UHGV virus genome: UHGV-1376410
Length of the DNA stretch: 47,591 nucleotides
Direction: 5' to 3' (one strand)
From: a virus
Shown here: one piece after another, positions 1,353 through 46,883 of the stretch
Layout: every line of letters starts with the position of its first letter
Numbering within the stretch: the first letter of the stretch is position 1
Position numbers and translations under genes: made by a program
The notes under the pieces: generated by a model
What the model was told of the DNA's origin: nothing
Seen by the model: only the letters and a program-made list of their open reading frames with translations
The model's database searches: none

Positions 1353-1394
1353 ATCAATCTACGTCAGCTTTGCACGCCCTGTCAATGGTATAAT
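1353..1394. promoter_or_regulatory. Divergent promoter region containing the conserved motif AATCAATCTACGTCA
   Basis: - strand TTGACA(1385-1380)-N18-TAGATT(1361-1356); + strand extended -10 TGGTATAAT (1386-1394) 29 nt before ATG 1423. Confidence 0.5.
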
Positions 1395-1422
1395 TACGTC
1401 ATTATGAAAACAGGATTTAGAC

Positions 1423-2130
1423 ATGAGACAACGCACACCGCTAACAGAAATCGGAGAAATGCGCATCTCCCTGGATGACAAGTCTTTTTTCTTCAAACCA
1501 TCATTTGCGGCGATGAATGAGCTTGGCTCACCAAAAGAGATTGTCGAGCTGTATGCTACGCTTAATGGCTATGAATACGCGGCTGTACTTGGCGCCATTC
1601 AGTCATTGCCATACGGCGCACAGATTCAGGTGGCAAAAATCCTGTCGCGTCCTGCCTATGGCAAGAAAGTGCTCAGCGCTGCCTGCCTCATCATGCAGTC
1701 CTGTTGCGATGATGATATCTCGGTGCTCATTGGATCATGGAAGCCGACTCCGCGCGGTGTTAAGTACGTCACCGGACGAATGCCAGTAAATGACATTATT
1801 ATTATTGCTCGCAACCTGATGGAACATGGCGTCATCGGAAAGTCTCCGCTCAAGGTTCCTCAGCGCTCGGAAAACCAAAAGCGCACAACCAGTGAGTTGA
1901 GAATGTCGGATTACATCATCTCAGCTCGCACCCATTTCGGAATCACCCGCGAGGAAGCCGAAGACCTGACCATGACCGAGTATCAGCAGATGATAAAATC
2001 AAAATACCCGGAACCGGAAGGCATGACGCGCGAGCAGTATGATGCTTCCTATGAGCGGGCCAAACTGAATAAACAGAAACTGAAAGAGAAAGCCGCCAGA
2101 AAGGCCGCTAAAAGCAAAGGAGCAAAATAA
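1423..2130 (+). CDS. tail assembly chaperone (G/GT-like)
   Basis: Immediately upstream of the tape measure with TAATG overlap; basic, Lys-rich C-terminal extension typical of the T-domain. Confidence 0.5.
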   Translation: MRQRTPLTEIGEMRISLDDKSFFFKPSFAAMNELGSPKEIVELYATLNGYEYAAVLGAIQSLPYGAQIQVAKILSRPAYGKKVLSAACLIMQSCCDDDISVLIGSWKPTPRGVKYVTGRMPVNDIIIIARNLMEHGVIGKSPLKVPQRSENQKRTTSELRMSDYIISARTHFGITREEAEDLTMTEYQQMIKSKYPEPEGMTREQYDASYERAKLNKQKLKEKAARKAAKSKGAK

Positions 2131-5100
2131 TGGCAGAAGAAGTTGGCGGCATTGTCTATGAGGTTGGCATTGACACATCTCAGTTAGCAGCTGGAAGTCG
2201 TGAAATAGAGTCGATGCTAAATGACCTCAGTGGGAACATGGGACGGCTCGAGGCCAGTGTAAACAGGACGGAGCGCTCTATAAGCTCAATGGAAGGAACC
2301 ATGTCGAGCCTCACTGGTGTCGCAAAAGGCTTGCTTGCAGCACTTTCCGTGCAACAGGTTGGCGCCTACGCTCAGGCGTGGCAGGATATGAGTAACAAAC
2401 TCTCTAACGCCGTGAGAGATTCGGTTCCGCCGTTTGAAACCCTTGCCGATGTAACTAATCGTGTTTTTGATATCGCGCAGAAAACACGCTCAGGACTTGA
2501 CGCAACGGCCACCTTGTACGCCAGACTTGAGAGGTCTACCAGAAGCTACGGTGTAAGCGTGGAAGACCTGACAAGGCTGACAACAATAATCAATCAGGGT
2601 TTTGTTGTATCAGGAGCGTCAGCTGAGGAGGCGAGCAACGCAATTATACAGCTTGCACAAGGCATGGCATCTGGCGCCCTTCGAGGAGATGAGTTTAACT
2701 CAGTAAACGAGCAGGGAAACCGGCTCATGATAGCTCTTGCCGACTCTCTGGGTGTTGGCATAGGTGAGCTTAGAAATATGGCCGCCCAAGGCAAATTGAC
2801 AACTGATGTTATAGTTAATGGCCTTCTTTCGCAGGGAGACAGTATTGGGAGAGAGTTCGCCAAAACAACTTCTACCATCAGCCAGTCTCTGGAGATAGCC
2901 GGAAATAACGTTGCAAGATTCTTTGGGGAAAACGCAACGGTAAAAACAGGCGTAAAAATCTTTAGCGATTTAGTGATACTGGCAAGTGAAAACATTCAGG
3001 CCCTCGGCACAGCACTAACCATTGTAGCTGGCGTAATGGGGAGCCGTTATGTTGGCGCGCTGGCAATGTCCACTGCCGCGAAAATATCAGATATAGCGGC
3101 ATCAAGACAGCGATTAATAGCTGAGAATCAGCAGGCACAATCTGCACTCTTTGCCGCCAATGCCGCCCGGAGAAAAGCTTTCGCTGATAAAGAGGCGGCG
3201 CTAACAGCTTTGTCGGTGGCCAAGGCTGAATATGAGGCCGCCAAAGGCAGCGCCGCAGAGATGCTGGCGCTTGATGCTCTGGTTGCAGCAAAATCAAGAG
3301 CTAGAGCAGCGTCACTATCCCTTGCTCAGGCTGAAAACGCACAGGCTACGGCATCAGCGAGAGCAGCATCCGCGGCAAGAGCTGCATCGGTAGGAATTGG
3401 CCTTGCCAGAGGTGCGCTTGCATTGATAGGCGGGCCAGCAGGCGCGGCGATGTTGGCGGCGGGGGCAATATTTTACTTTTGGCAGAAAGCACAGCAAGCC
3501 AGAGAAGAAGCAATCCGCTTTGCTGATGGCCTGGATGAAGTTAATGCCTCAATGAAGGAGATGAACAACACCAAGCTCAGGGGGGTGATAGCTGACACCA
3601 ATGTTTCAATTAGGGCGCAAGAGGAAGCTATTAGCGATCTGAAGGACACCATTTCAGACCTGCAATCCGATTACGAGAAATATACAACGCTTGCAAGAAA
3701 GTACGGGGTTGCCGAAGATCAAAATAATGGGTTCGTGATTAAGGCAACGGATGCCGCAGACCAGTTAGCTAAAAAGCGTAGGGATTTAGCTGATGCTGAG
3801 GAAAAACTAGCAAGAACTCAGGAAACAGCAGCCGAAGCAAGCAGGACCCTTACAAACAACATGCTCACGTCCATGGGTGTGCATGATGGTCTGATTGAGA
3901 AAGGTTCGACTCTTGAGAGAGTGCAGGGCGCTGTAGCAAGAGCATTTGGCCTGACTGCCGATGAGATAAACCGAGCAAATCAGGCAGGCCAAAACTTCAA
4001 CCCAAAATCCTTGCAAGTGTCGCCCCCAACAGAAGAAGCTGACAAGATAATCCTCAATCTTGAGGAGCAAAACCAACTTTTAAAAATACAGGATGAAAGA
4101 CAAAGGGCAGTAACAAAGGCGAGAATGGAGGCAGCTAAGGTAACTGATAACCCCAATCAGATAGCCAGAGCTGGTGAGCTTGCAGGGCAGATATATGATT
4201 TAAATGAGGCTGAGAAAGCAAGAGAAAAAGCGCAAAATGATTCTCAGTCAGCGGCCAACAAGGCAGCCACAGAGCAGGAGAATATCGCCAATAAACTTGA
4301 GCAGCTTCGCCAGGAGTCACTGCTTACCGCTGAAAGTACAAGAGAGCTTAGCCGCGAACAGTCAATACTGGCTGCTCAGCAATCCCTTGGCAAGGGGGCC
4401 ACTCAGGAGCAGATTAATCTTGCCGGGCAATATGCGGCTAAGGCATGGGATAATGCCAACGCGATCAAAGCTCAGGCAGAGGCAGAGAAAAAAAGAGTCG
4501 AGGCTGTCAAGGGGTTCGCTGCATTAAAATCGCAGACATCCCCAATGTTTGCCGTTGAAACAAATTATCAGAAGGATTTAGCAGCGCTCAATGCTTACGC
4601 AGTAGCTTACCCGCAAAAGATAGCGGAGGTTGAGCAGGCTAGAGCAGCTATTGAGGAGCAATATCGACAGCAGCGCCTTGATGCCATGTGGCAGGAGTGG
4701 AGCCAGCAGAATGCGGCTACGCAAGCAGCAGCTGCTGCATTTGATGCTTTTGGGCAAACAGCAAGCAATGCCTTGACCGGTGTTCTGACTGGCTCAATGT
4801 CTGTTAGCGAGGCGCTACAGTCAATAGGGAGTAATGTGTTAAATGCGGTTATTAACTCTTTCGTTCAGATGGGTGTGGAGTGGCTTAAATCAGTAATAAT
4901 GGGACAGGCAGGAATGGCAGCAGCATCTGCCGCAACCGCCGCTCAGGCGGCAGGAATAGCAGCGGCTATGGCGCCGGCAGCGGCAATGACCTCGCTTGCC
5001 ACGGCTGGCGCTAACGCAATCCCTGCACAGGCTGGCATTGTTTCCACCGTTGGTGTGGCTAAAGCCATGTCTGTTGCTGGAGCATTGAAAAATGGTGGCC

Positions 5101-5429: not shown

Positions 5430-5456
5430 AAAAAGCCCCTTACGGGGCTTCTTTCA
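5427..5456. terminator. Rho-independent terminator (bidirectional)
   Basis: AAGCCCC-TTAC-GGGGCTT hairpin flanked by an A-run and a T-rich tail. Confidence 0.7.
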
Positions 5457-6120
5457 TTATCTCATTCATAAGTTCTGGTGAATATTTAAGCCACTCCGTT
5501 GCGCCGTTAAAGCCTTTAAAACCACTGGATTCGTATTTCTTATGATAATAATTTTCAATTTTACGAGCCTTAACTCCATCTGTTTTTATTTTATGTATGA
5601 GATCAAAATCAAATGGAGTGACTATCTTCAAGTGCCTGACCCTATTTTTTATATCCTTTGTAACGCCAACTTTTATCGAGCCCTCTCCCATCAAGAAGTA
5701 CACAAAAGAAACTCTGTTTCTATCAAATCCCCTAACTGCGCAAGATGGGCATCCTTTTCCAGATATGTGCGCGGATGGAGTCTGCTTGAAATCACCATGC
5801 TTCATGCATGTTATTGTCACAGGCGTGTGGTTATTTTTATATTTAACATTATTATAACCATATTTATCCCCATGGATAGAAATTGCCTTGCTGACAAATC
5901 CAGTGGAGTTCATTTTCTTCTTTCCTGAACACATGGAACAGCCAAATCCAGCAAGGTGACTATAAGCCCTTTGCATAAACTCACCGTGGTATCGGCATGT
6001 TATAGATACTTTGTCATGAATTTTGTTAAATTTTACAAGATTGTAGTCATACTTGTTGCCGTGAACATCTTTGGCTCTAGAAATGAATTCTTCAATGGTG
6101 ATCTTTGCTGGCATAAACAA
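5440..6120 (-). CDS. free-standing homing endonuclease-like protein (tandem Zn-ribbon repeats + T5orf172/GIY-YIG-like domain)
   Basis: Two about-55-aa repeats (HG.KYDY...ITC..HG.F.Q....H..G.GC..C); C-terminal VYFLMGEGSIKVGVTKDIKNRVRHL region; opposite orientation inside the tail operon. Confidence 0.65.
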   Translation of the reverse strand: MFMPAKITIEEFISRAKDVHGNKYDYNLVKFNKIHDKVSITCRYHGEFMQRAYSHLAGFGCSMCSGKKKMNSTGFVSKAISIHGDKYGYNNVKYKNNHTPVTITCMKHGDFKQTPSAHISGKGCPSCAVRGFDRNRVSFVYFLMGEGSIKVGVTKDIKNRVRHLKIVTPFDFDLIHKIKTDGVKARKIENYYHKKYESSGFKGFNGATEWLKYSPELMNEIMKEAP

Positions 6121-6131
6121 CCTCGTAGCAG

Positions 6132-6147
6132 GTTCGTAGATTGAGGG
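6132..6147. promoter_or_regulatory. Copy of the conserved motif (GTTCGTAGATTGAGGG on the + strand)
   Basis: Between the - strand endonuclease gene start and the + strand minor tail gene; TAGATT -10-like hexamer on the + strand. Confidence 0.4.
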
Positions 6148-6202
6148 TGCAGCAGGATGTCTACGTTCATCTTTTCGTCTGGCCGGACTAGCTGCACTGT
6201 GA

Positions 6203-6721
6203 TTGTACCATCAACGTGCTAAAATACAACAATACAAAATGGAGACCGCTATGGCTATCCCTTACCCATCATGGCTTCCGCTGGCGCAGCGGGCCAGCAA
6301 GAACATGACGACTCAAACCCCATTCCGCAGCGATCAGCCTGCGGTTGGGGCGCCAATATTTCAAAAGTTAACTACCGATGTTGCAGTAACATGGAGTTTG
6401 ACGTGGGTTTTTACTCTGGAGCAAGACCGGGCTTTCATGCAGTGGTTAAGGAGTCCCAAGTATCTCAATAAATGCAACGAATGGTTTACAATGGATGTTG
6501 ATCTTGGGGGTAGTGGAAGACAAAACCAGACATTGCATTTTACTGACTATCCCGTTCAAACCAGCATCAATGGTGGCGTCGTAACATGGACAGGAAACGT
6601 GATAGCAAAAACGTTAAATAATAGTGATGATGGCTCTGATGATATTATCGTTGAATATCCACCAAGCCAAAGATTGTGGCTCGATGAAATTGTTAACAGA
6701 GACTGGCCGGAGTATCCATAA
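6203..6721 (+). CDS. minor tail protein (distal tail/M-like position)
   Basis: Gene order after the tape measure; alternative starts at 6239 or 6251. Confidence 0.5.
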
Positions 6722-14701: not shown

Positions 14702-15324
14702 TCTCCGTGGTTACAGAATTCTTTATGCATCTTTTCTCTAAACTTCATGACAGCAACTCTTGCTTTATCAATATCATGAAATAATCCAATGTGGTATTTA
14801 ATACCATTAACCGTACATCTGGCATGCCATTTTTTGCATTGTTTGTTCCAGTAAACACCTTTCACTCCAGATGTATTATTTTTTTGCTTTTTACGATTAA
14901 ACTGATTCTGTTCATTGCTTGCTATTCTTAAGTTATCAATCCTGTTGTCATCTCTAATGCCATTAATGTGATCAATATTATCTTCTGGCCAATAACCATA
15001 ACAAATCAACCACGCGAGTATATGAGCATAATACCTATTATTATTTATGCTTATTTCTATGTAACCGTTATCTTTTTTGCAGCCCGCCAAATCTCCATTG
15101 TTTACGCAACCAACAGTCTTGTTCCATGCAAACAAACCAGTTACCCGATTGTAAGTTAAGTTATCTAAAACAACATTACGAGGTATTCTTTTTCTTCCAC
15201 CTATGGTGTTTGACCCTGCATTTCCCTGAGCAAAATCTTGCTTTTGCAGTTCCGATAAACTTATTTCCGCAAACCTCGCACTTCTTAACGGTGATAGCCA
15301 TTTCTTAACCTCTATTGTAATCAT
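14698..15324 (-). CDS. HNH homing endonuclease with AP2-like domain
   Basis: IDHINGIRDDNRIDNLR motif plus GVKGVYW...KW AP2 block. Confidence 0.8.
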   Translation of the reverse strand: MITIEVKKWLSPLRSARFAEISLSELQKQDFAQGNAGSNTIGGRKRIPRNVVLDNLTYNRVTGLFAWNKTVGCVNNGDLAGCKKDNGYIEISINNNRYYAHILAWLICYGYWPEDNIDHINGIRDDNRIDNLRIASNEQNQFNRKKQKNNTSGVKGVYWNKQCKKWHARCTVNGIKYHIGLFHDIDKARVAVMKFREKMHKEFCNHGE

Positions 15325-15369: not shown

Positions 15370-15795
15370 TCAATCTACATCATTCAGCAAGCCAAAATAG
15401 AAAAGTGTGGCTCTTTTTAGTTCATCAAGACCGTAAGCAATGGCGGCATAATGACCAAGCCTGCACATCTCTGTTAGCACAGACGATTGCTCTTTGCTCA
15501 CTCTGCTTTTGCTTTTATCGCGACGCTTTGCTTCAATCATCCCGCAACTGTGCTTCGCCCCCGGCGTCATTATCACATTGTCGCCTATTCCAGTCTTAAC
15601 CCCCATCTTCTGGCGCTTCAATACAAACTGAACCCTGCTTGATGTGCCAGTTTCGTTGGGGACATGAAACCACAGAACATCAGGGAAGCGGTGTTGCATC
15701 CATGTGCCGTAACCCATCTGGTCAGTCTCCTCTTTTGGGCATTCGCCGCGATAACCGCTATCAAATACCCATATGCCGCTATCAAGCTGCTTCAC
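15370..15795 (-). CDS. VRR-NUC domain nuclease
   Basis: FHVPNE...G...D...IEAK arrangement; size 141 aa. Confidence 0.45.
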   Translation of the reverse strand: MKQLDSGIWVFDSGYRGECPKEETDQMGYGTWMQHRFPDVLWFHVPNETGTSSRVQFVLKRQKMGVKTGIGDNVIMTPGAKHSCGMIEAKRRDKSKSRVSKEQSSVLTEMCRLGHYAAIAYGLDELKRATLFYFGLLNDVD

Positions 15796-15805: not shown

Positions 15806-17740
15806 TTAAAATTCTTTGCGGTGGATTATGTCTCGGCCTTTATCGTTAAAGCGATGCGTGATGCGTTTAGGTGCGCGGATAAGGCCAGTAAATGCCATGA
15901 ATTCTTTTGCGTTGTGGCAATTCATGAGGTTATCAATCAGATTCCTGTCTGATACATGGTTTAGCAATCCTTTAATCTTAAACTGATTTTTCAGATACTT
16001 CTCCTGCCTCCCAAAAGGATAAAAGACCTCATTAGCCCACCCATCTTTGCCATTCTCTTTTGTAATGAAATAACGATAAACAACACCCTTTTCATCTTTC
16101 GTTAATTCAATCTTGAAGTCTTTAACATCAGTCCACTCATTATCAGTATACGCACGCTCATTCAGTGCCGCATTCGGGTCGCGCAAAACGTGATCGCAAT
16201 GCCGGCAATAACGAGCTGTCGGGTCGTTCTTTGTGCCGCAACCATCATCAAAAATACGGATGCCGTGCTTGTCGAAACCACAGCGAATGAAGCTGAAAAA
16301 CTCTTCGCAACGACCATCTGGCGAAGTTGAGTCTTTACCGATGCAACGCCTTGCATATGGGCTGTTCATCGTCTGGCATTTAGGGCATGGAACCTGCTCT
16401 CCGCTGCGCTTGGCGCGCTGTGCTTCTGCTTCCTCAAGGATGGGGTCTTCGTACAGACCGCCCAACTCGAACATGGTTCCGGTGAAGTCAAGGCAAAGAT
16501 GGTTTTCTTTCACCAAACCTGCGGCAACCTGCTCAGGCTTTAAAAGTCGCATTGGTCGGCCAAGCAACTGCGTCAGAAGCGTCAGGGACATAATTTTTCT
16601 CAGGATGACAGACGTATCCCAATATGGAATATTAACGCCAGTAGTGAGGCAACCGATTTGCAGCGTGTATTTTTTACGCCCGGTTGCCGCATCTTTCAGC
16701 GCTTTCCGTCTGGCTTTCTGTCCCATATCCTCAGTAACAATGGAATAACTGCCTTCTGGTAAGTATTTTGCAGCCTCCTTGCAGTGTTTTTTCCCTGCGC
16801 AGGTAATGAGTACGCCGAGCCTGTCGCGCGTAAGCTCCATGACTTTGAGCATGATTTTTTGTGTCAATGTACCCTGCTTGAGGATTTCTTCCTGCATCTC
16901 TTTTAGCTGGCTATCAGTGAAGTCCTGCACGCCGTCAACGTCACTACTGGCAAACTCATGCAGATCGTATTGCAAGTCCTCGATATCCTGCCCACCAAAG
17001 ATGGTAGGAACAAGAAACCCAAGATCGACAAGGTATTTTGTGCTGATGTTGACAATTTCATGTTTCCAGTAAGCCCCCTTGATAGATTCAACGCCGCGAA
17101 ATGGGCTGCCGGTGTAGCCAATGACAATCACCTCATGACCGTACTTCGCTTTACAGCGCCGGTTAAGTTCATTCATGATGACACCGTACTGCGTCTCTGG
17201 CTGCTCTGATATTATGTCCTGCCAGTTAACCTGATGGCATTCATCAACCAGTATGTAGCGTGGTGAAAAGTCTGATAGCAGTGATTTCGTCACGGTGCCA
17301 TCATCGGCTGTCTTATCAAAAAGACCATTTATTATTGTGCCCTCCGTTCCCGCTATAAGCGGATAGGCATATGCTTTACGCCCAAGTGAAGAGCTAAACA
17401 GAGAGTTTTTTACACTCAGGTTCCAGAGTTCCTCTGCATCCTGCTCAATAATTTCGCCTTGTCGCGCGATGACAAGCCCTTCCCACCCCATATCCTGAAA
17501 ACGACGGGCAATCATGGCTATCATGATGGTCTTACCGGCGCCAACTGACGCGGTAACATAACTTGGCTTTGGCTGCTTACCAAACTTGCGGATAACCTCA
17601 GCTGTCTTTTCATATACCAGCCATTGGTATGGGCGCGGTTCAATTTCCCCGGTATGGATGCTGGCCCGCAGCTTATCCATATCCAGCTCAGCAATCATTG
17701 CATCAATTTTTTGCACTTCATCCACCTTTATGTTGCTCAA
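15806..17740 (-). CDS. SF2 DNA helicase with C-terminal Cys-rich zinc-binding region
   Basis: Walker A SVGAGKT, DECH box, QLLGRPMR motif VI, CPKC...C..C clusters; listed start is TTG, more likely ATG at 17698. Confidence 0.8.
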   Translation of the reverse strand: MSNIKVDEVQKIDAMIAELDMDKLRASIHTGEIEPRPYQWLVYEKTAEVIRKFGKQPKPSYVTASVGAGKTIMIAMIARRFQDMGWEGLVIARQGEIIEQDAEELWNLSVKNSLFSSSLGRKAYAYPLIAGTEGTIINGLFDKTADDGTVTKSLLSDFSPRYILVDECHQVNWQDIISEQPETQYGVIMNELNRRCKAKYGHEVIVIGYTGSPFRGVESIKGAYWKHEIVNISTKYLVDLGFLVPTIFGGQDIEDLQYDLHEFASSDVDGVQDFTDSQLKEMQEEILKQGTLTQKIMLKVMELTRDRLGVLITCAGKKHCKEAAKYLPEGSYSIVTEDMGQKARRKALKDAATGRKKYTLQIGCLTTGVNIPYWDTSVILRKIMSLTLLTQLLGRPMRLLKPEQVAAGLVKENHLCLDFTGTMFELGGLYEDPILEEAEAQRAKRSGEQVPCPKCQTMNSPYARRCIGKDSTSPDGRCEEFFSFIRCGFDKHGIRIFDDGCGTKNDPTARYCRHCDHVLRDPNAALNERAYTDNEWTDVKDFKIELTKDEKGVVYRYFITKENGKDGWANEVFYPFGRQEKYLKNQFKIKGLLNHVSDRNLIDNLMNCHNAKEFMAFTGLIRAPKRITHRFNDKGRDIIHRKEF

Positions 17741-17778
17741 TCTACGTCACAATAGTAGACTGAATCTACGGCAATAAT
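17736..17778. promoter_or_regulatory. Tandem copies of the conserved motif in the helicase/primase divergent region
   Basis: CTCAATCTACGTCA (17736-17749) and TGAATCTACGGCA (17761-17773) upstream of ATG 17791. Confidence 0.45.
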
Positions 17779-17790: not shown

Positions 17791-18684
17791 ATGCGATACG
17801 ACTGGAAGGATATAGAGCCTTTAATGGTAGGCAACTGGGAGGCCGCGCTGCTATCAATAGTGAATATTGACAGGAAGGTTTTTAATGGAAAGCATCAGCC
17901 ATGCCCTCATTGCATGGGTAAGGACAGGTTTAGGTGGGATAACAACTTCGAAACAAAAGGCGACGGCGGCGCCATCTGCAACCAGTGCGGAAACGGGAGC
18001 GGCATCACCTGGCTAATGAAGCTTTCAGGAATGACGTTTCCAGAGTCAATGGAGGCACTTGCCGGATTTCTGAACATGCACCCACGCGAAAAACTTGAGG
18101 CGATTAGAAAGCAACTTCCGAAGGTCAACCATGCTTCTGACTACCTGACAGAGACAGAAGTGGCGGCCATCATGGAAAAAGCAGGAGACGACACCATAAC
18201 CGGTAAAACTGGTGAACTGGTGGCGATACCGCTCTATATGGCTGGAACCATGACGCCATGTAATGTGGCTTTTCTGGCAGACGATGAAAGCGTGTCATTT
18301 CGCGCGGGTTTTAGCCATGAGTACACTCGCGGAAGACTTACGCGAGGTGCAGTTACACCCATCGGCGATAAGACTGAATGGACATACCTTGTTGCGGATT
18401 ACTTCGATGCCTGGCGAGCGCACCGGCTTACTGGCGCACATGTCTGGTGTTGCTGGTCGCCGGAAAACATGTGGGAAGTTGCGCGCAATGTGAGCGATGA
18501 GCAGCGCACTAAACTACGCTGTATCATTAATAATAATTTCGATGCGGTATGCGCCGCCGAGAATGCAGGTCTTCCGATACTGATTACTGATGATGGTCAG
18601 GATATCCGTTACAGCAGTGCCATCAGAAAAAGGCTGTATAAACCAGAAGAGCTATTTGAAGCACTAAAAAACAAACCCTCCTGA
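17791..18684 (+). CDS. DNA primase (N-terminal zinc ribbon + Toprim-like region)
   Basis: CPHC...CNQCG zinc finger; divergent from the helicase. Confidence 0.6.
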   Translation: MRYDWKDIEPLMVGNWEAALLSIVNIDRKVFNGKHQPCPHCMGKDRFRWDNNFETKGDGGAICNQCGNGSGITWLMKLSGMTFPESMEALAGFLNMHPREKLEAIRKQLPKVNHASDYLTETEVAAIMEKAGDDTITGKTGELVAIPLYMAGTMTPCNVAFLADDESVSFRAGFSHEYTRGRLTRGAVTPIGDKTEWTYLVADYFDAWRAHRLTGAHVWCCWSPENMWEVARNVSDEQRTKLRCIINNNFDAVCAAENAGLPILITDDGQDIRYSSAIRKRLYKPEELFEALKNKPS

Positions 18685-18700
18685 TGGAGGGTTTTTGTTA
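18670..18700. terminator. Rho-independent terminator (bidirectional)
   Basis: CCCTCC-TGAT-GGAGGG hairpin then TTTTTG. Confidence 0.7.
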
Positions 18701-21036: not shown

Positions 21037-21053
21037 ATTTAATCTACATAAGC
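21037..21053 (+). promoter_or_regulatory. Degenerate copy of the conserved motif (TTTAATCTACATAAG)
   Basis: Sequence match in the control region. Confidence 0.3.
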
Positions 21054-21403: not shown

Positions 21404-21432
21404 TTGACGTAGATTGAGCGACATCGTATAGT
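21404..21432 (+). promoter_or_regulatory. Consensus sigma70 promoter for the rightward operon
   Basis: TTGACG-N17-TATAGT; the spacer begins TAGATTGAG (conserved motif). Confidence 0.6.
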
Positions 21433-21456: not shown

Positions 21457-21570
21457 ATGAAGATGAGTAAGAAAACGCAATTTTCAGTAAGTAACTTCCA
21501 TAATGAGCATGTCATGCGCTGGCACTGGCAGAAACTCAAAGGTCGCTACCTTGCACGGCATGGCAAATAA
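21457..21570 (+). CDS. possible 37-aa basic peptide
   Basis: AAGAGGTG SD, first ORF after the promoter. Confidence 0.25.
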   Translation: MKMSKKTQFSVSNFHNEHVMRWHWQKLKGRYLARHGK

Positions 21571-21616
21571 ATAGCATAGCGCCACTTCGGTGGCGCATAA
21601 CCAGAGGTGATAAAGA

Positions 21617-21802
21617 ATGACCAAAGCAATCTACACGCGCACTCAACTGGAGCCTGAAATGGGCGCAGTGAAAGCGCAAAACTTTATGATGGCGCAGGCA
21701 ATGCATGCATACAGCAACGGTAAGCGCGTCTGTCGAGTTTTTAGTGGTGAAGGTAAGCATAGAGTGCTTGAGCAGGTTATCGTGTCATCTGGTGGAAACT
21801 AA
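21617..21802 (+). CDS. hypothetical protein
   Basis: ORF with GAGGTG SD. Confidence 0.4.
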   Translation: MTKAIYTRTQLEPEMGAVKAQNFMMAQAMHAYSNGKRVCRVFSGEGKHRVLEQVIVSSGGN

Positions 21803-21817
21803 ACCGGTTTAGCAACA

Positions 21818-22096
21818 ATGAATAAATTACTGGCAGTGGCTTTACTGGTTATCGCTAACGCGGCAAGCGCTGAGGCTATATGGGTCACGAAGTACGCGCT
21901 GACCCGTGGCATTCAGAAGTACGAAAGCGCACAGCTATTTGCTGATGGTCAGGTGGCTGTAGTTGGCGAGGTTTACTTTAAACGTGGTGAATACTGGCTT
22001 GATGAGCAACAGGCAAAAGAGCATGCAGAGACTTTGCGGCAACGCCGTGTATCTGCATTGATGCGTGAGCTTGAGCGTTTACAGGCTGTTAAGTAA
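21818..22096 (+). CDS. hypothetical secreted protein
   Basis: N-terminal signal peptide MNKLLAVALLVIANAASA. Confidence 0.5.
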   Translation: MNKLLAVALLVIANAASAEAIWVTKYALTRGIQKYESAQLFADGQVAVVGEVYFKRGEYWLDEQQAKEHAETLRQRRVSALMRELERLQAVK

Positions 22097-22117
22097 AAAA
22101 TATTTGTGAGGTGTGTG

Positions 22118-22297
22118 ATGACAAGCAAAAAGAAGGTAGCAGACAAGAAATTTCAGGATGCAATGCAGGCTGATTTTATTGGCCGTAATATGACAGACAT
22201 ATCTCAGCAGGCGCGCAAAGCTGGCTGGCGCATCAGCAAAAACCGGCAACGCTGCTATGCGTTGTGGCACAAAATTTCACGGGGAGCCAACCAATGA
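22118..22297 (+). CDS. hypothetical basic protein
   Basis: ORF (listed from 22106). Confidence 0.4.
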   Translation: MTSKKKVADKKFQDAMQADFIGRNMTDISQQARKAGWRISKNRQRCYALWHKISRGANQ

Positions 22298-23302: not shown

Positions 23303-23385
23303 GCCAGCATTGCGCTGGCTTCTTTTTTATCTACGCCATGTGGTAAGATATGTCCTATGTGAGTTACTAAAAGGACACATATAAA

Positions 23386-26446: not shown

Positions 26447-26476
26447 AAAAAGCCCCGTTGCCGGGGCGGTTTGGTT
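26447..26476. terminator. Rho-independent terminator (bidirectional)
   Basis: GCCCCG-TTGC-CGGGGC hairpin then GGTTTGGTT. Confidence 0.65.
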
Positions 26477-26783
26477 ACTTGATATTTTCCCAGTGATTTA
26501 TTGCGTCACTCTTGTTTTGGTAGCTTTTCACCATGCGCCAGGTTTTTACCATCTTCCCGCGCGAATAGTTTTCGCAAAGCACGTATACCTTATAAGTGTC
26601 TGCAACAACTTTTTCAGTGCATTCAGCAGCAACATCGTTAGGGATGCCATCTGGTTTGCGAAAGAACTCAACGTGGTGATGAGCAACAGCATATTTCTTT
26701 CCGTTTTTTGCTGTTTTCGCTTTACTAATCCAGTTTTCAATATTCATCGATTTAACCTCACTCACCGGCGGCGCCATTGCCAC
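26475..26783 (-). CDS. hypothetical protein (likely start at 26747)
   Basis: ORF; own promoter at 26796-26824. Confidence 0.45.
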   Translation of the reverse strand: MAMAPPVSEVKSMNIENWISKAKTAKNGKKYAVAHHHVEFFRKPDGIPNDVAAECTEKVVADTYKVYVLCENYSRGKMVKTWRMVKSYQNKSDAINHWENIK

Positions 26784-26795
26784 CTCAATGACTTC

Positions 26796-26824
26796 AATCT
26801 ACACCAACCACAAATCCACGTCAA
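26796..26824 (-). promoter_or_regulatory. sigma70-type promoter TTGACG-N17-TAGATT
   Basis: The hexamers are the reverse complement of motif pieces CGTCAA (26819-26824) and AATCTA (26796-26801). Confidence 0.5.
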
Positions 26825-27151: not shown

Positions 27152-27183
27152 TTTAATCTACGCCATGCTAGAATCTACGTCAA
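27152..27183 (-). promoter_or_regulatory. sigma70-type promoter TTGACG-N17-TAGATT built from two tandem motif copies
   Basis: TTTAATCTACGCCA and GAATCTACGTCAA; 20 nt upstream of ATG 27128, with a GGAG SD. Confidence 0.5.
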
Positions 27184-29717: not shown

Positions 29718-30642
29718 TGCCCGGCTTCCGCAGCCAAAATTAAGCATGAGCCTGACAGACCCACTCGGCGCAGTGGGTCGCGTCAATAAGATGGTGCGCG
29801 ACGTTGACGCCAGATATATGACGCTAAAATCGCAGGTTGCCGAGCTGTTCCGCACCATTCCTGTGGCGACCGGCAATGCTGAGGCTGGAAATTATTATTA
29901 TGATTTCTCCGCCTACCGCGCATCGACATTCTTTGATGAACTTCAGCGCATTCTTGATAGTCATCTGCTGGAAGGTGATGATTTCACGCACGGAAGAATG
30001 TGGGCATCATCTTATGTCAGCGATGCCATGTATGCCGGTACGCAGAAGGCAAACTCAGACCTTGGCGACCTGTCGTCGGCATATAAAGACAGCAGGCCGC
30101 TTGCTGAAATCCTGTACTCTCAGCCGTATCTCGACAGGCTTCAGTTAGCGTACACGCGCACGTATAACGATTGGGGTGGCCTTTCAGATTACACGCGGCA
30201 ACAGGTGGCAGAGGTCATCACTGCTGGCATTGCAAATGGCGACGCTCCTGGAGTGGTTGAGCAAAACATCGTTAACCGCATGGACGTGTCAAGGAGTTAT
30301 GCGCGGTCAATCGCTCAGACTGAAATTACCAACACCCTGCGCGAGGCTAACAGGCGCGAAGTGAAAGAGGCGCAAGTCACGCTGGGGATGGATACCATCA
30401 TGCTCTGGCAGTCGGCGTTGATGAAGACCACCCGCGTTACTCATGCCGCGCGTCATGGGAAGTATTACACCCCGGAAGAGATTGATGAGTTCTACAGCGA
30501 AGGCGCAAACCGCCGTAACTGTCATTGTGCACAGACCCCGGCTCTGGTGATGGATGGCAAGCCTGTGATACTTGAGAAGACGCAAGAAAGGCTCGATAAG
30601 CAGCGTGAAGCATGGCAGGACACACACAAGAAAGCCGCCTGA
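29698..30642 (+). CDS. head morphogenesis / minor capsid protein (SPP1 gp7 / Mu F-like position)
   Basis: Follows the portal with a 20-nt overlap; listed ORF start 29593 is probably too far upstream. Confidence 0.5.
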
Positions 30643-30660
30643 TGGCGGCTTTTGCTTATT
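30630..30660. terminator. Rho-independent terminator (bidirectional, between convergent genes)
   Basis: AAGCCGCC-TGAT-GGCGGCTT hairpin and T-run. Confidence 0.7.
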
Positions 30661-32022: not shown

Positions 32023-32065
32023 CTTGAATCCCCTTTGTTTGTGTAACTACATCATCGCTTACGAT

Positions 32066-32099
32066 TCAATCTACGTCAAGACTATTGTGATAAAATAAT
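32066..32099. promoter_or_regulatory. Motif TTCAATCTACGTCAAG plus extended -10 TGATAAAAT upstream of the endolysin; its reverse complement gives a TTGACG -35 for the leftward cassette
   Basis: Sequence. Confidence 0.45.
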
Positions 32100-32119
32100 C
32101 TGCATCACCGGAGGTAAAA

Positions 32120-33269: not shown

Positions 33270-33297
33270 AAAAGCCCCGCAAGGGGCTTTGTTTTAG
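33268..33297. terminator. Rho-independent terminator
   Basis: AGCCCC-GCAA-GGGGCT hairpin then TTTGTTTT. Confidence 0.7.
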
Positions 33298-34335: not shown

Positions 34336-34362
34336 TGTCGCTCTCCTGTGAAATCATCTTGA

Positions 34363-34407
34363 CTAATCTACGTCAATTAGTCAATACTAGGTGTTGTAGA
34401 TTATAAC
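34363..34407. promoter_or_regulatory. Inverted pair of motif copies (CTAATCTACGTCAA and reverse TTATAATCTACAAC) in the divergent region
   Basis: + strand TAGATT -10-like at 34397-34402 ahead of the HNH gene. Confidence 0.45.
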
Positions 34408-34430
34408 ATCTTAATGCGAGTGATGTGGAT

Positions 34431-34946
34431 ATGAACTTTATTGACTTGTTTGTTTACGAAAACGGCAAGCTTTACTGGAAGGTTAAGCCGTCAAACAACG
34501 TAAAGGCTGGCGCAAGGATTGGGTGCCTGGAGCCAACGACAGGTTATCGAAAGGTAAAAGTAAAATACACCCAGACATATGAGCACAGGATTGTTTGGGA
34601 GCTATTTAACGGACCAATACCGGAAGACATGGAAATTGATCACATCAACCACATCAGAGATGACAACCGAATAGAGAATCTCAGGCTTGTTAACAGGAGA
34701 GAAAACACGAGAAACAGTTCAATCAGGAGCGACAACACCAGTGGTGTTGTTGGTGTTTGTTTTGATAAAAAGCGCGGCAAGTGGTACGCGCAAATAGTCT
34801 TAAACGGAACAAGGCTGCACTTAGGTCGCTTTTCAGAAAAGAGCGAAGCAATAAAGACCAGACTTGAAGCTGAAATGAAATATGGTTTCCATGAAAACCA
34901 TGGAATCAATAGGCCAAAAAGAATGATAAAAGGTGGTGTGGAATGA
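34431..34946 (+). CDS. HNH homing endonuclease with AP2-like domain
   Basis: IDHINHIRDDNRIENLR and GVVGVCF..KW blocks; listed ORF starts at GTG 34425. Confidence 0.8.
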   Translation: MNFIDLFVYENGKLYWKVKPSNNVKAGARIGCLEPTTGYRKVKVKYTQTYEHRIVWELFNGPIPEDMEIDHINHIRDDNRIENLRLVNRRENTRNSSIRSDNTSGVVGVCFDKKRGKWYAQIVLNGTRLHLGRFSEKSEAIKTRLEAEMKYGFHENHGINRPKRMIKGGVE

Positions 34947-35158
34947 AGAAGTGGCAGGAGGTGACAGAGATTCATAAGCGCGATTGCCGGGAGACTCTGC
35001 AAATGCTTAATGTTCCAGAGTCAATCATTAAATCTATCGAGCGGCGCATTGACCTGGCTGCTATGGAGGCCGCCCATGAAGCCGAGGAAGCGCAAATGTT
35101 GTCATGGATGGACAGAACTCTACCGGGCGTTTTACATTGTGGTAAGACTACCGATTGA
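34943..35158 (+). CDS. hypothetical protein
   Basis: ORF, ATGA coupled. Confidence 0.4.
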   Translation: MKKWQEVTEIHKRDCRETLQMLNVPESIIKSIERRIDLAAMEAAHEAEEAQMLSWMDRTLPGVLHCGKTTD

Positions 35159-35241
35159 AGATGATGACGGGTATCTGCATAACCATAGTCAGGTACTCAA
35201 ATATTATGGCGTTCACTACAAAGTTCTGATGGAGAGAAAAA

Positions 35242-35433
35242 ATGACTACTGATCAGGTGTACGAAAAAGAGTTGCTGAACAAGCTGGAAGAACTTGACCG
35301 TACTCGCGCATGGGTTGAAAGCGAATTGCGCGAGGTTCGCAATCGTATGCAACGGCAGGTAAACCGCGAAATTATCGAATGGCGCGAAGGGCGTCCGCAT
35401 TTCAGCAATATTGGTGAGTGGGTGGCGAAATGA
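35242..35433 (+). CDS. hypothetical coiled-coil protein
   Basis: ORF. Confidence 0.4.
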   Translation: MTTDQVYEKELLNKLEELDRTRAWVESELREVRNRMQRQVNREIIEWREGRPHFSNIGEWVAK

Positions 35434-35654
35434 GAAAAGCCAGCACGTTGCTTCAGTTAATCATGGCTGACATCAGGGAAGACAATGCAAGGGCATCGTG
35501 GCAGAAAAACCAGCCTGACCGCCGAACATTGAAACAGATGCTGCATACCAAGTGCAGGCGACCTGGCATAAAACGCAATTATCGCAGGGACAGGGTACTG
35601 AGAAAACTATGCAACATTCAGGCTAAATACATGATGGGGAAGGTGGTGAAATGA
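35430..35654 (+). CDS. hypothetical basic protein
   Basis: ORF, coupled. Confidence 0.4.
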   Translation: MRKASTLLQLIMADIREDNARASWQKNQPDRRTLKQMLHTKCRRPGIKRNYRRDRVLRKLCNIQAKYMMGKVVK

Positions 35655-35887
35655 AACCAATGATGGGCAGCAATGGGCTGCTTGAGTGCCATAAATGCGG
35701 GAGCCTTGATGTTTACGCCTGCGTAAAGGGTTCGGCGTGGATTATTGAGTGTAATGATTGCGGAAAGAAAGGTGGCGAATATCTCCGCCTTTGCACCGCG
35801 GTGAGGTCATGGAATACCAGGGGTGGCCAGCTATACACGGTCGAAGACTACAAGCATGATGAACTGGAGCGTAAACATGGACTTTAA
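35651..35887 (+). CDS. Lar-family restriction-alleviation-like zinc-ribbon protein
   Basis: CHKCG...C..ECNDCG four-Cys pattern and C-terminal SWNTR motif. Confidence 0.45.
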   Translation: MKPMMGSNGLLECHKCGSLDVYACVKGSAWIIECNDCGKKGGEYLRLCTAVRSWNTRGGQLYTVEDYKHDELERKHGL

Positions 35888-36347
35888 AACGCAAATACTC
35901 ACGGTGATAGAGCGTTGTGGTGGCGCAACCAATGCCATGATACGCAAGCAGACTGGCATGACAAACCGAGCCAGCGTTACTGGCTATCTGATTGAGCTGG
36001 AGGGTATGGGATTTATTATTAAAGAGGAAAGCGTCAGCCATGGCAGGCGCTGCTTTAAGTATTTCCTCAATCCCGATAATACCGCGCTTGATCTGGCAAT
36101 TCAGACGTATCTTGAGGCGAATCCGGGACGCAAAAGCAAGCAGATAGCAGAGGCTATCGGCGTCAACTACACCATCCTCAAGGCACGCATGCGCTATCTG
36201 GCAAGCATTGGTCAGGTTGACCGTGAAATGCTTCCCGGCGGAGCGTGGAAGTATTACTGGCAGGAGGGCATTCCGTTTGGCATGAACCGTGACAGGATGA
36301 TGTTTGAAAAGCTGCTTGCCGGGGCGCGTCAGTCATGTGGGCGGTAA
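35877..36347 (+). CDS. winged-helix DNA-binding protein (two wHTH-like repeats)
   Basis: Repeated helix-turn-helix-like segments; listed ORF starts upstream at 35823. Confidence 0.45.
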   Translation: MDFKTQILTVIERCGGATNAMIRKQTGMTNRASVTGYLIELEGMGFIIKEESVSHGRRCFKYFLNPDNTALDLAIQTYLEANPGRKSKQIAEAIGVNYTILKARMRYLASIGQVDREMLPGGAWKYYWQEGIPFGMNRDRMMFEKLLAGARQSCGR

Positions 36348-36625
36348 AGCATAAATCAGGAACCGTGCTGTTTGTCACCAACTGTGAACGCACGGCCAAT
36401 AATCGCAGAGAGATGGGGTGGATAGTGGAGGAAGTGGATGTGAGCAAGCCAAAAAGCGCATTAATTAAAATTACATGGCATGACGACACGGTTAGCCAGT
36501 GGCATGCAGATTCATTCAGAGAGGGTGAGCACTCCATTGAAATGAATATTGGTGGATGCATCGTTTGCATCCCCTGGAGGTTATACAAAGATGGCGAAGT
36601 TAAACATTTGGATGTGGAGTCGTAA
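36335..36625 (+). CDS. hypothetical protein
   Basis: ORF. Confidence 0.4.
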   Translation: MWAVKHKSGTVLFVTNCERTANNRREMGWIVEEVDVSKPKSALIKITWHDDTVSQWHADSFREGEHSIEMNIGGCIVCIPWRLYKDGEVKHLDVES

Positions 36626-36970
36626 ATGAAACTACAACTTAGCGAAATAATGGAAGCAACAGTCAGTGAACTGGAGGATATCGACATGACGCTTGCCTTT
36701 GAGATTGAGGCTATCGAGCGTCAGCTTGCTGGCAATCAGAATGGAAATAAGGTATGGAGAGAGAAGGCCATGAAGGCAAAGGGACATATGCAGCGCACCC
36801 GCGCGCTGGTTCGCACTCGCCTTGATAAGCTCTACTACGGCGAAGAAAGAATGTTGCACGGCGCCATTCTGGCTGAAATCCGCAAAACGATGCCTATCGG
36901 TAAGTTCATGGATGCCGTAAACCGCGCAAAAATTAACTGCGGAATGTTAAATAAGAATAGTCCTCAATAA
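36626..36970 (+). CDS. hypothetical coiled-coil protein
   Basis: ORF. Confidence 0.4.
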   Translation: MKLQLSEIMEATVSELEDIDMTLAFEIEAIERQLAGNQNGNKVWREKAMKAKGHMQRTRALVRTRLDKLYYGEERMLHGAILAEIRKTMPIGKFMDAVNRAKINCGMLNKNSPQ

Positions 36971-41401: not shown

Positions 41402-41430
41402 TAAAAGAAAAGCACCAGAATGGGCTTTGT

Positions 41431-42530: not shown

Positions 42531-43346
42531 TTACAGCTTCTCCAGAATAGCCAGAACTTCACCCAACTCAGCGGAAGGAAGGCGCAAAAATTCTTCTGTC
42601 TCCTGTGCCACATGACCCTCAGCAACCACCATATGATCTGCTTCTTTCAGCAACTGAATCAGGCGGTCAATCGGCTTAACTTTTTTGGCCTTGAGCGTTT
42701 TAGCCGTCACCTTATCTTTGCCCTGCGCTTTCGCTTCCTCAACGGCGGCATCAATAACGTTAACGGCATCATCGCCATGCTCACGTGCGACCGCAACGGC
42801 GTTGGCATAGCTGATTTGGCCTGCATTGATACGCTGCTTGATGGCATCAGGTACATCACCAAGTGACAGGTGCATTTGCACATCAGACACAGAGCGCCCG
42901 ACCTTCTTGGCGATTTCTTCATTCGTCCACCCGAACCCTTTGAGGCGCACATAAGCCTTTGCACGCTCAAGCGGGTCGAGTTGCTTGCCCTGACTTGAAG
43001 ACACCATGAAGGCGATTTTATCCGCCTCATCGCCGGTGAAGTCTTTGCACTCAATTCGCGCAATTGGCACGCCGCGCTCAATGGCACGCAGTGCTCCAAG
43101 GTAACGATGCTGGCCGTCAAGAATCTTGATGCGCTTTCCGTCGGCATCAGGAATAACAGTTAACGCCGGGATTGGCTGTCCTGATTCCCAACACTGCGCG
43201 AAGTATTCAACGTGCTGCTCATCGGCTTCGCGGATGTTGTACCCCGGCTCAAGGTAAAGCTGGTCGACAGGGACCTGATAACCTTTGTTGACCACGATTC
43301 CGCCGCGAGTTTCTTTGTCTGAGTAAATTTTTCCGAGAGATGTCAT
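42531..43346 (-). CDS. ParB-like nuclease domain protein
   Basis: ILDGQHRY ParB/Srx motif; likely start MTSLGK at 43346 with a GAGGGGAAG SD (the listed ORF extends to 43382). Confidence 0.7.
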   Translation of the reverse strand: MTSLGKIYSDKETRGGIVVNKGYQVPVDQLYLEPGYNIREADEQHVEYFAQCWESGQPIPALTVIPDADGKRIKILDGQHRYLGALRAIERGVPIARIECKDFTGDEADKIAFMVSSSQGKQLDPLERAKAYVRLKGFGWTNEEIAKKVGRSVSDVQMHLSLGDVPDAIKQRINAGQISYANAVAVAREHGDDAVNVIDAAVEEAKAQGKDKVTAKTLKAKKVKPIDRLIQLLKEADHMVVAEGHVAQETEEFLRLPSAELGEVLAILEKL

Positions 43347-43784: not shown

Positions 43785-43806
43785 TTATTGTTGTTTCTAC
43801 GTCATC

Positions 43807-43835
43807 ACTATAGCGACACCCTCAATCTACGTCAA
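43807..43835 (-). promoter_or_regulatory. Consensus sigma70 promoter TTGACG-N17-TATAGT
   Basis: Nearly identical to the promoter at 21404-21432, including the TAGATTGAG spacer start. Confidence 0.6.
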
Positions 43836-43996
43836 CACTTTATGATAAAATTAAACCAACAACACTCAACCCGCGCTGTTCCGTCCTGAAAAACGTAAGG
43901 CGGCGAAATTGGATATAGCAATCGGCGTTATCGTCATGGCGCTTTCGCTGGTTCAGGTGTACAGATGCTGGAAGTTCATCATTCGGAGAATAATTA

Positions 43997-46018: not shown

Positions 46019-46046
46019 AAAAAGGCCGCTGATGAGCGGCTTTTAG
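46017..46046. terminator. Rho-independent terminator (bidirectional)
   Basis: A-run, GCCGCT-GATG-AGCGGC hairpin, T-run. Confidence 0.7.
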
Positions 46047-46228: not shown

Positions 46229-46339
46229 TGCGCTCCCCGAAGATGGTTCCCGCGACAGGATTCGAATTATTGTTGTGGCCCTGGTGCCTCCAGGTTGCTG
46301 GTCGGTAAATCCAGCAGGCATACCCACAAAAGGAGCATA

Positions 46340-46680
46340 TTTCTACCTTGCCACGTGCGCATAGCCGCATTACCACAACGGAAAGAGTACTGGCTTGGCT
46401 CGACATCAGATAGGGTGGAACAGCCCTCAAATGCCCAATGCTCTTACCTGTTGTGTGTTGTGGAGTGACGCACCATCTCACTCTTGAATGTTAACCCATT
46501 CCCGGCCCAGCAACACACGCTACGGTTAAGATTATTGCGCGTGTTGTATGGTCTTGCTGGTCACAACGGAAAGAGCACTCCAGGACTTACCACACGTACT
46601 TTTGCGCATAGGTCGTCACCAGTGCGGGCGTGTCCCCTGAAGCTACCTGACAATGCTCTTACCTGTTGTGTGCCCATCAT
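46340..46680. repeat. Duplicated non-coding segments
   Basis: AATGCTCTTACCTGTTGTGTG perfect 21-mer at 46436 and 46652; ACAACGGAAAGAG(T/C)ACT at 46373 and 46563; TGCGCATAG and CCGGGCCAG blocks shared. Confidence 0.6.
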
Positions 46681-46840
46681 TAATCACACCGGGCCAGTGC
46701 GCCGAATTCATTGACAAGGAGTCGGAAGACCTTGCTGGTGTTTAGCCGTTAGGCTACTGCCAGATACATTTCTTCGTTTGCATTTATCTTTGTGGTCAGT
46801 TTCTAAAAACCAGCAAAGTCGCACCGAAAACTATCTGCCA

Positions 46841-46883
46841 TTAAATCTACACCACCAATCAAAACCTGTCAACATGATATAAT
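46841..46883 (+). promoter_or_regulatory. Motif TTAAATCTACACCA plus extended -10 TGATATAAT for the major tail gene
   Basis: 35 nt upstream of ATG 46918, with an AGAGAGGA SD. Confidence 0.5.

Follow-up and report, generated by a model that had tools for sequence, protein, structure and literature searches.

A 13-bp intergenic motif as probable core-promoter module and candidate operator of the non-structural units in a Roufvirus-like Klebsiella siphophage

The virus genome UHGV-1376410 was analysed over its whole length of 47,591 nt (the window), and a 13-bp motif with the functional reading 5′-TTGAYGTAGATTG-3′ was found to recur in its intergenic regions. The motif is very probably the signature core-promoter module of the non-structural units of this phage, and the chances are about even that a sequence-specific second reader occupies the motif promoters, as judged from sequence comparison. 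For the favoured explanation as a whole, a core-promoter module of the non-structural units with an additional operator function, the probability is estimated at roughly 0.6. The motif can be regarded as a phage-specific promoter/operator consensus, and neither a match to motif 10-mers nor a description of the motif was found in the phage literature searched.

According to the proposed mechanism, the host sigma-70 polymerase would read either the TAGATT half of the motif as −10 hexamer or the TTGAYG half as −35 hexamer. Single copies would be completed by TTGACA located 17-18 bp upstream or by TATAGT located 17 bp downstream, and two copies 17 bp apart would complete each other. The non-structural units presumably transcribed from these promoters, and probably transcribed early, comprise replication, recombination and small accessory genes, the homing-endonuclease cassettes and the tRNA region. 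Structural and lysis operons would use extended −10 promoters (TGnTAnAAT) without −35, arranged back-to-back with the motif promoters in divergent regions. The second reader would be a sequence-specific, probably monomeric protein that occupies the motif promoters as an operator, and most plausibly it would switch off or modulate the non-structural units, by which the polymerase would be shifted to the back-to-back late promoters.

Distribution, orientation and conservation of the motif

In the window, the exact 13-mer CAATCTACGTCAA is present in 3 copies (0.00 expected) and, with up to two mismatches, in 12 copies (1.1 expected). The core TGAYGTAGATT occurs 16 times with at most one mismatch against 1.38 expected copies, a number reached by 0 of 100 shuffles, and GTAGATT occurs 18 times compared to about 6 expected. 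A position weight matrix (PWM) built from the window's own copies yielded 16 matches of at least 13 bits, every one of them in the intergenic 7.2% of the genome, versus 1.7 in shuffles; due to the training on window copies these PWM counts are partly circular, which does not apply to the k-mer and coupling tests. Moreover, motif k-mers rank top among the over-represented intergenic k-mers. An earlier sequence-only reading, made by a model from the letters alone, had proposed a real and intergenic element, and these counts bear it out. The core was recovered at all 16 positions listed there, the coordinates being 0-4 nt off (their true starts are those in Table 1), and three further copies had been overlooked, namely 26812-26824 and the weak copies 32096-32108 and 23327-23339. 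The motif had furthermore been listed in the wrong orientation, the functional reading being the reverse complement of the listed form.

In this functional orientation the next same-strand start codon follows 21-61 nt downstream for most copies. All four strong copies in minus-minus gaps (15371, 21040, 26795, 26812) are co-directional with transcription, the copies of opposite orientation (6131, 21404, 34391) stand before plus-strand genes, and in BUCT610 14 of 14 strong copies agree in orientation with the deposited annotation. The apparent one-strand bias of the motif is thus a consequence of gene orientation. The motif is present at 9/9 divergent junctions and in 3/4 internal minus-minus gaps, but at 0/9 convergent junctions and, in sense orientation, in 0/11 plus-plus gaps; at seven of the nine convergent junctions hairpin terminators read on both strands were found instead. 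The earlier statement that the element marks nearly every transcription-unit boundary has to be narrowed to the divergent junctions and most minus-minus gaps, and as a transcription map the motif is usable for the 5′ ends of non-structural units and not for all unit boundaries. Regarding a possible RNA element, no Rfam match was found at the motif, which is without dyad symmetry.

The window was assigned to its relatives by megablast against phage records. The first 24 kb match BUCT541 (94.5% identity, 85% covered), and the second half of the window matches KpV2811 (94.7% identity, 83% covered); ZX4 and two members of Roufvirus, pIS4-A and pYD38-A, are related as well. Mapping of the BUCT541 proteins placed the major tail gene in two parts at the window ends (46918-47589 and 2-76), from which it follows that the window is one whole, circularly permuted genome, i.e. 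the complete 47.6-kb genome of a Roufvirus-like Klebsiella siphophage. The gene table covers 92.8% of the window and leaves an intergenic remainder of 3442 bases (7.2%). Plus-strand blocks carry the tail, terminase, portal, capsid and lysis genes; the minus-strand blocks, together with the plus-strand stretches 21457-23826 and 34425-36970, carry replication and recombination genes, homing endonucleases and small unknown genes.

A set of ten genomes, composed of the window, BUCT541, KpV2811, pIS4-A, BUCT610, ZCKp20p, VLCpiS13d, Bas79, Seszw_1 (Skatevirus) and Segz_1 (Segzyvirus), was used for comparison, a PWM search of related genomes having been suggested by the sequence-only reading. In each of the nine relatives, which span three genera, 11-16 strong copies were found, located at orthologous places in the first six; Bas79, Seszw_1 and Segz_1 are only 70-74% identical to the window in the helicase-primase region. 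When the control regions are aligned, little or no variation is seen in the motif and its partner hexamers; the spacers and flanks vary, and so do even the genes downstream. Coliphage T1 has no motif copy of at least 13 bits. In IMG/VR an exact 14-mer was found in 118 stretches, 40 of which have at least two strong copies and belong to relatives; the other stretches are consistent with chance matches.

A non-transcriptional role as a strand-specific nick site, a short-homology linker of cassettes or a replication signal would agree with the location of most copies on one strand, with the cassettes 5440-6120 and 26475-26783, which bring their own copies and one of which is found at different places between genomes, and with the Erf-type and ExoVIII-type recombination proteins encoded by the phage. 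This role is nevertheless extremely unlikely, as gene orientation accounts fully for the strand bias and the copies are confined to the 5′ ends of units, at short fixed distances to the start codon and with canonical partner hexamers. Moreover, 13 bp are short for homologous exchange.

Sigma-70 promoter content and a second promoter class

The TAGATT half retains both critical bases of a −10 hexamer, A at position 2 and T at position 6, and the TTGAYG half is close to the −35 hexamer TTGACA. Seven motif copies are part of canonical −35/−10 pairs with 9-10 of 12 matches, formed either with a separate partner hexamer or with a second copy at a distance of 17 bp. A consensus scanner independently found all five sigma-70 combinations that had been named before, i.e. 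TTGACA-18-TAGATT at 1385..1356, TTGACG-17-TATAGT at 21404..21432 and 43835..43807, and TTGACG-17-TAGATT formed by two motif copies at 26824..26796 and 27183..27155. A sixth, TTGACA-17-TAGATT at 46872..46844 (−), had been missed, and a weaker pair was found at 32079..32051. Among 141 strong copies in the ten genomes, 39 have a −35 partner, 40 a −10 partner, 1 has both and 61 have neither; the copies without partner hexamer in the window include 15371, 17738, 17762, 21040, 34364 and 34391. The commonest spacing of tandem copies in the ten genomes is 17 bp (15 cases), followed by 23-24 and 29-31 bp. The motif is not an extended −10 element, its TG being located at −17/−16 and not at −15/−14.

A second promoter class consists of extended −10 boxes TGnTAnAAT without −35, of which 12 out of 23 in the window are intergenic. 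Nine of these 12 stand before plus-strand genes, eight of them before structural or lysis operons. The motif promoters all use the non-consensus hexamer TAGATT, while the late class uses TATAAT or TAAAAT. In divergent regions the distance between motif and late box varies from −1 to 19 bp; four late promoters are without a nearby motif (e.g. 10038, 28236, 37114), and the motif copies 15371, 21040, 26795/26812 and 21404 are without an extended −10 box. Since boxes and motif are oppositely directed, are separated by variable distances and each occur without the other, the boxes represent separate promoters and not partners of the motif. The four extended −10 boxes that the earlier reading took to be served by the element are indeed present, but as independent promoters of opposite direction. 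The −35-independence of the late class hints at a possible switch of the polymerase away from −35-dependent promoters.

The frequent lack of a partner hexamer (61/141 copies) could also be understood if the motif were a positive-control site, at which a bound factor fires the copies without −35 (helicase, 32067, 34364 and others) in a manner similar to T4 MotA or activates neighbouring late promoters. Upstream second copies, located 17-31 bp from the −10 copy and hence at about −30 to −45, would suit such a factor, as would the reverse complement of the motif upstream of late promoters in divergent regions. The single copies without −35 cover the −10 hexamer itself, so that a bound protein would exclude the polymerase, and the second copies do not keep the fixed position of a MotA box (about −30) but vary (17, 23-24 and 29-31 bp). 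The variable distance to the late −10 hexamers, the four late promoters without motif and the absence of MotA/AsiA-like, gp55-like or other sigma-like proteins from Pfam scans of the window proteins also speak against positive control, which is considered improbable.

Evidence for a second reader and candidate proteins

Within the favoured explanation, the operator part is based on the coupling of the two motif halves. In intergenic DNA of the window, TTGACG is followed by T(A/G)GATT in 6/6 cases compared to 0/34 in coding DNA, and TAGATT is preceded by G in 15/15 cases compared to 3/13 in coding DNA; the halves never occur separately there. At sites D and I, where the motif is used as −35, the spacer contains the TAGATTG half, which does not differ between clades, whereas identity is about 50% over the other ten spacer bases. 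At sites A and J, where it is used as −10, the adjoining TGAYG/TGGTG bases are conserved and the rest of the spacer is not; at site A, TTGACA and TGAYGTAGATT are kept in both clades, the spacer between them is not. In Segz_1 (3324-3367) the 13-mer of site H is inverted in place with its sequence retained. The copy 23327 next to the TerS-like gene is present in both clades; it is located antisense at about −29..−17 of TGGTAAGAT in the window and in sense orientation across the start region of TGATAGAAT in VLCpiS13d. The positions of copy 43793, at about −4..+9 of a canonical promoter, and of copy 34364, within a spacer, also favour a second reader, as do the 61/141 copies without partner hexamer and the clustered spacings of tandem copies. 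From the constancy of 11-13 bp even where the polymerase reads one half only, we infer a second reader, and the asymmetry of the site suggests a binder that is monomeric or composed of two unlike domains. The motif has the properties of an asymmetric multi-copy operator, being non-palindromic, dispersed over intergenic regions and oriented with transcription.

Alternatively, the motif could be a plain promoter consensus read by host sigma-70 only, in which the extra bases T−17, G−16, A−15, Y−14 and G−13 tune strength or kinetics, e.g. by acting as an atypical extension upstream of the −10 that renders the −35 dispensable. The seven canonical pairs, the orientation and gene distances, which fit promoters, and the fact that no dedicated regulator was identified in the Pfam scans agree with this explanation. 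The same is true for the unchanged motif in phages of Klebsiella, Salmonella and E. coli, whose sigma-70 proteins are nearly identical. Sigma-70 makes no base-specific contacts that would hold a TAGATTG in the spacer or a TTGAYG abutting the −10 hexamer constant, yet both are constant. The shifted TG, the avoidance of the consensus TATAAT by all copies, the copy 23327 without a gene to drive, the copies flipped in place between relatives and the use of a different element by T1 on the same host are likewise not expected of a plain promoter, which is rated as unlikely. The sequence-only reading had posed promoter consensus and operator as an either/or; it pointed in the right direction, but both functions may hold at the same time.

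Phage T1, which shares its host species with Bas79, has its own genome-wide asymmetric element, ATAGCAC-N5-TG(C/T)TAAAA (e.g. 3535, 4344, 4864, 6531, 8362, 36444), one subtype of which is followed by a −10 box after about 18 nt. T1 contains 21 matches with at most one mismatch to AYNGCACNNWNNRYYAAAY, which we take to be the MarA/SoxS/Rob marbox consensus, versus 1.1 expected, and the element strings gave no match in the literature searched.

Several points weigh against the favoured explanation. The support for the window phage and its relatives comes from sequence, with the PWM counts being partly circular. For seven copies a plain sigma-70 promoter is an adequate explanation, and the other conserved positions could be constraints on promoter strength. 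The motif ends at −15 to −35 relative to the late promoters, and with this variability no single geometry of a switch can be discerned. Pfam scans of about 46 window proteins recognised no repressor-like gene, and they returned only two DNA-binding candidates, one with tandem winged-helix domains and one with ParB-HTH and KorB domains. Between clades with the same motif the identity of the winged-helix protein is only 34-43%, and genome-reduced seszw phages from which its homologue (gene 7) has been deleted, e.g. seszw_300L, are viable (PMC9825161). In view of these mutants it cannot be an essential activator, although it could be a dispensable repressor. VLCpiS13d is without the ParB-like gene, of which 25 codons remain, and has kept 15 strong motif copies.

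The winged-helix protein is regarded as a weak candidate for the reader. Its structural model has two tandem winged-helix domains (mean predicted local distance difference test score of 78), for which Foldseek gave generic winged-helix and tandem winged-helix matches with template modelling scores of at most 0.42. K102, R104 and R106, located in its second recognition helix, do not vary between clades. As far as the model can be relied on, the tandem architecture would suit an asymmetric site, which is suggestive only.

The ParB/KorB-like protein could be a KorB-like global regulator with the motif as its operator. It matches HTH_ParB with 43 bits and KorB with 28 bits, both above the Pfam cut-off, shows 81% identity between clades and has not been lost from even the smallest seszw mutants, and its gene appears to be transcribed from the motif promoter 43823. 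ParB and KorB sites are palindromes, and the motif is non-palindromic, unlike parS and OB. Together with the persistence of the sites in VLCpiS13d after loss of the gene and the phage vB_EcoM-ep3, which has a 50% identical homologue and no GTAGATT copy, this makes the ParB/KorB-like protein an unlikely reader, and as a global regulator acting through the motif it is very improbable. In ep3 the palindrome ACAATSATTGT is present about six times and may be the true site type of its ParB/KorB-like protein. In VLCpiS13d (15149-15223, 15979-16629) the site-I promoter is directly followed by an unrelated gene of 216 aa, for which Pfam gave no match.

A host factor is also a possible reader. The marbox consensus AYnGCACnnWnnRYYAAAY matched the window twice versus 1.1 expected and does not account for the motif, and the consensus sequences of FNR, CRP, DnaA, IHF, MatP, Tus, MetJ, NarL and the marbox regulators showed only partial resemblance at the level of half-sites. 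The MerR-like gene of BUCT541 was dismissed as well, having no counterpart in the window, where the motif is present.

Control regions, known systems and significance

The motif copies and associated features of the window are collected in Table 1. At the locus of copy 15371 the relatives have TTGATG-17-TAGATT. The promoter at 21404 would drive an ORF (open reading frame) of 35-37 aa from about 21457, which was previously unlisted and begins 46 nt downstream of the copy, and the plus-strand small genes up to 23826. For copy 26795 the better start codon is ATG 26747, giving a distance of 47 nt. Control region H (34336-34424) is compact and partly palindromic, TTGACTAAT...ATTAGTCAA being arranged around the 13-mer, and it is conserved in ten genomes.

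Table 1. Coordinates of motif copies, extended −10 boxes, bidirectional terminators and candidate reader genes in the window.
Coordinates	Strand	Feature	Sequence and predicted promoter role	Context
1355-1367	−	Motif, site A	CTGACGTAGATTG as −10; −35 TTGACA at 1385-1380, spacer 18	Would drive 1326←104
6131-6143	+	Motif, deviant	GGTTCGTAGATTG, 11.6 bits	Adjoins inserted T5orf172-type endonuclease gene 5440-6120 (−)
15371-15383	−	Motif	ATGATGTAGATTG	46 nt upstream of HNH gene 15324←14698, minus-minus gap
17738-17750	−	Motif, site C	GTGACGTAGATTG; without −35 partner	21 nt upstream of DEAD-helicase/recombination operon 17716←12561
17762-17774	−	Motif, site C, second copy	TTGCCGTAGATTC	24 bp upstream of copy 17738
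21040-21052	−	Motif, deviant	CTTATGTAGATTA	61 nt upstream of 20978← (replicative helicase operon)
21404-21416	+	Motif, site D, exact	TTGACGTAGATTG as −35; −10 TATAGT 21427-21432, spacer 17	
23327-23339	−	Motif, weak	ATGGCGTAGATAA	No gene downstream; about −29..−17 of box TGGTAAGAT, TerS-like gene 23386
26795-26807	−	Motif	TTGGTGTAGATTG as −10, −35 from copy 26812	Would drive ORF 26747/26783←26475
26812-26824	−	Motif	TTGACGTGGATTT as −35 (TTGACG-17-TAGATT)	
27154-27166	−	Motif, site F	ATGGCGTAGATTA as −10	Gene 27128←26838; overlaps plus-strand extended −10 box TGCTAGAAT (27166)
27171-27183	−	Motif, site F	TTGACGTAGATTC as −35 (TTGACG-17-TAGATT)	
32067-32079	−	Motif, site G, exact	Without good −35 partner	44 nt upstream of 32022←30656; back-to-back with lysis promoter box TGATAAAAT (32088 +)
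32096-32108	−	Motif, weak	GTGATGCAGATTA, 12.6 bits	29 bp upstream of copy 32067
34364-34376	−	Motif, site H	TTGACGTAGATTA; within spacer of conserved TTGACT-17-CAAGAT	28 nt upstream of 34335←33316
34391-34403	+	Motif	GTGTTGTAGATTA	21 nt upstream of block 34425-36970 (HNH, Lar-like, tandem winged-helix protein); overlaps minus-strand box TGTTATAAT (34400)
43793-43805	−	Motif, site I, deviant	ATGACGTAGAAAC	About −4..+9 of TTGACG-17-TATAGT promoter, operator-like position; identical in 10/10 genomes
43823-43835	−	Motif, site I, exact	As −35; −10 TATAGT 43812-43807	Would drive 43766←41685 including the ParB/KorB-like gene
46843-46855	−	Motif, site J	GTGGTGTAGATTT as −10; −35 TTGACA 46872-46867, spacer 17	Reads into 690-nt ORF-less stretch
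1386-1394	+	Extended −10 box	TGGTATAAT	Tail operon; back-to-back with copy 1355
32088-32096	+	Extended −10 box	TGATAAAAT	Lysis operon
43843-43851	+	Extended −10 box	TGATAAAAT	Head-tail connector operon
46875-46883	+	Extended −10 box	TGATATAAT	Major tail gene
6217, 10038, 27166, 28236, 37114	+	Extended −10 boxes		Before plus-strand genes
37028 (+), 6202 (−), 34400 (−)		Extended −10 boxes		Other intergenic boxes
86-105, 5433-5450, 18673-18694, 26452-26467, 30630-30653, 33271-33290, 46025-46040		Bidirectional terminators		
35877-36347	+	Tandem winged-helix protein		156 aa, 'MarR-like', weak candidate reader
42531-43346	−	ParB-HTH/KorB-domain protein		Considered as reader, judged unlikely

Several further features of the genome were recorded. 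The cassette 5440-6250 carries a T5orf172/MUG113 and DUF723 gene (putative homing endonuclease) on the opposite strand with its own control region and has an insertion site flanked by the tape-measure gene and the tail gene that follows. Seszw_1 has an almost identical control region, with GGTTCGTAGATTG included, between the portal and head-morphogenesis genes (around 39436). The stretch 46229-46917, located downstream of the near-consensus promoter TTGACA-17-TAGATT, contains no ORF and no tRNA gene over 690 nt, the relatives having one to three tRNA genes there. It has direct repeats of 22 nt (46436/46651) and 18 nt (46374/46562), and Rfam gave sub-threshold matches only. In the gap upstream of the large terminase gene an int-alpA RNA was matched at 23843-23906 (+) (RF02996, 42.6 bits, gathering threshold 35.8). 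The large terminase itself (23911-26445, +) comprises 844 aa versus the usual length of about 474 aa due to an intein (Hint and LAGLIDADG homing endonuclease, residues ~92-375); a similarly long gene is present in KpV2811, pIS4-A and Segz_1 but not in BUCT541. The phages pIS4-A and pYD38-A are deposited as Aeromonas/Vibrio phages and are about 90-93% identical to the Klebsiella phages over 52-75% of the window, so that their stated hosts may deserve re-examination.

Among known systems, the P1 C1 operators are 17-bp asymmetric Op sites scattered over the genome. As in P1, the motif is asymmetric and present in many dispersed copies that overlap the promoter elements of many units; unlike these sites it comprises 11-13 bp and doubles as promoter hexamers. 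In contrast to the temperate P1 with its known repressor, the relatives of the window phage are reported as lytic in their genome papers, integrase or repressor annotations are absent from the records of all relatives examined, which does not indicate a temperate lifestyle with immunity, and no C1-like protein was recognised. The stoperators of L5 and Bxb1, 13-bp sites of gp71, are likewise asymmetric, numerous, located in short intergenic gaps and oriented with transcription, but they mostly block elongation within operons of temperate phages, whereas nearly all motif copies are located at promoters and unit 5′ ends of virulent-type phages. The switch of phi29 p4 at A2b/A2c-A3 resembles the divergent regions described here, in which back-to-back early and late promoters could be switched by one bound protein; in phi29 there is one control region, with a known regulator, while at least six such regions are present here and the regulator is hypothetical. 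Like the class-specific promoter consensus sequences of T7 and T4, the motif would mark a temporal class of units and be usable as a map; unlike them it consists of sigma-70-like hexamers fused without spacer and used in either register, and no phage RNA polymerase is annotated in the relatives or was mapped onto the window. The motif thus belongs to none of these families. RK2 KorB OB is also a 13-bp site and recurs at the majority of operons of its replicon, which likewise codes for a KorB-domain protein, but it is a palindrome, and the asymmetric motif persists without the KorB-like gene in VLCpiS13d.

A further generalisation is offered tentatively and is somewhat doubtful, namely that in Roufvirus, Skatevirus and Segzyvirus all non-structural operons are under a fused 13-bp promoter-operator and that a monomeric reader, of phage origin (e.g. 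the winged-helix protein) or host origin, hands the polymerase over to the late promoters, which would constitute a genome-wide early-to-late switch without lysogeny.

The sequenced Klebsiella, Salmonella and E. coli phages of this clade number well above one hundred and are in development for therapy and biocontrol. Most of their genes are unannotated, and no promoter description was found in the searchable literature, including the genome papers on ZCKp20p, KlebP_265, seszw and the BASEL collection. The motif, the extended −10 class and the bidirectional terminators together provide a testable transcription map, which marks the control regions to be spared in genome reduction or payload engineering. 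The reading of the motif is directly testable with Bas79 on E. coli K-12 and with the seszw deletion series. If a dedicated reader exists, promoter and operator would form a compact and portable pair, and temporal control would be achieved in a virulent siphophage without its own polymerase or sigma factor.

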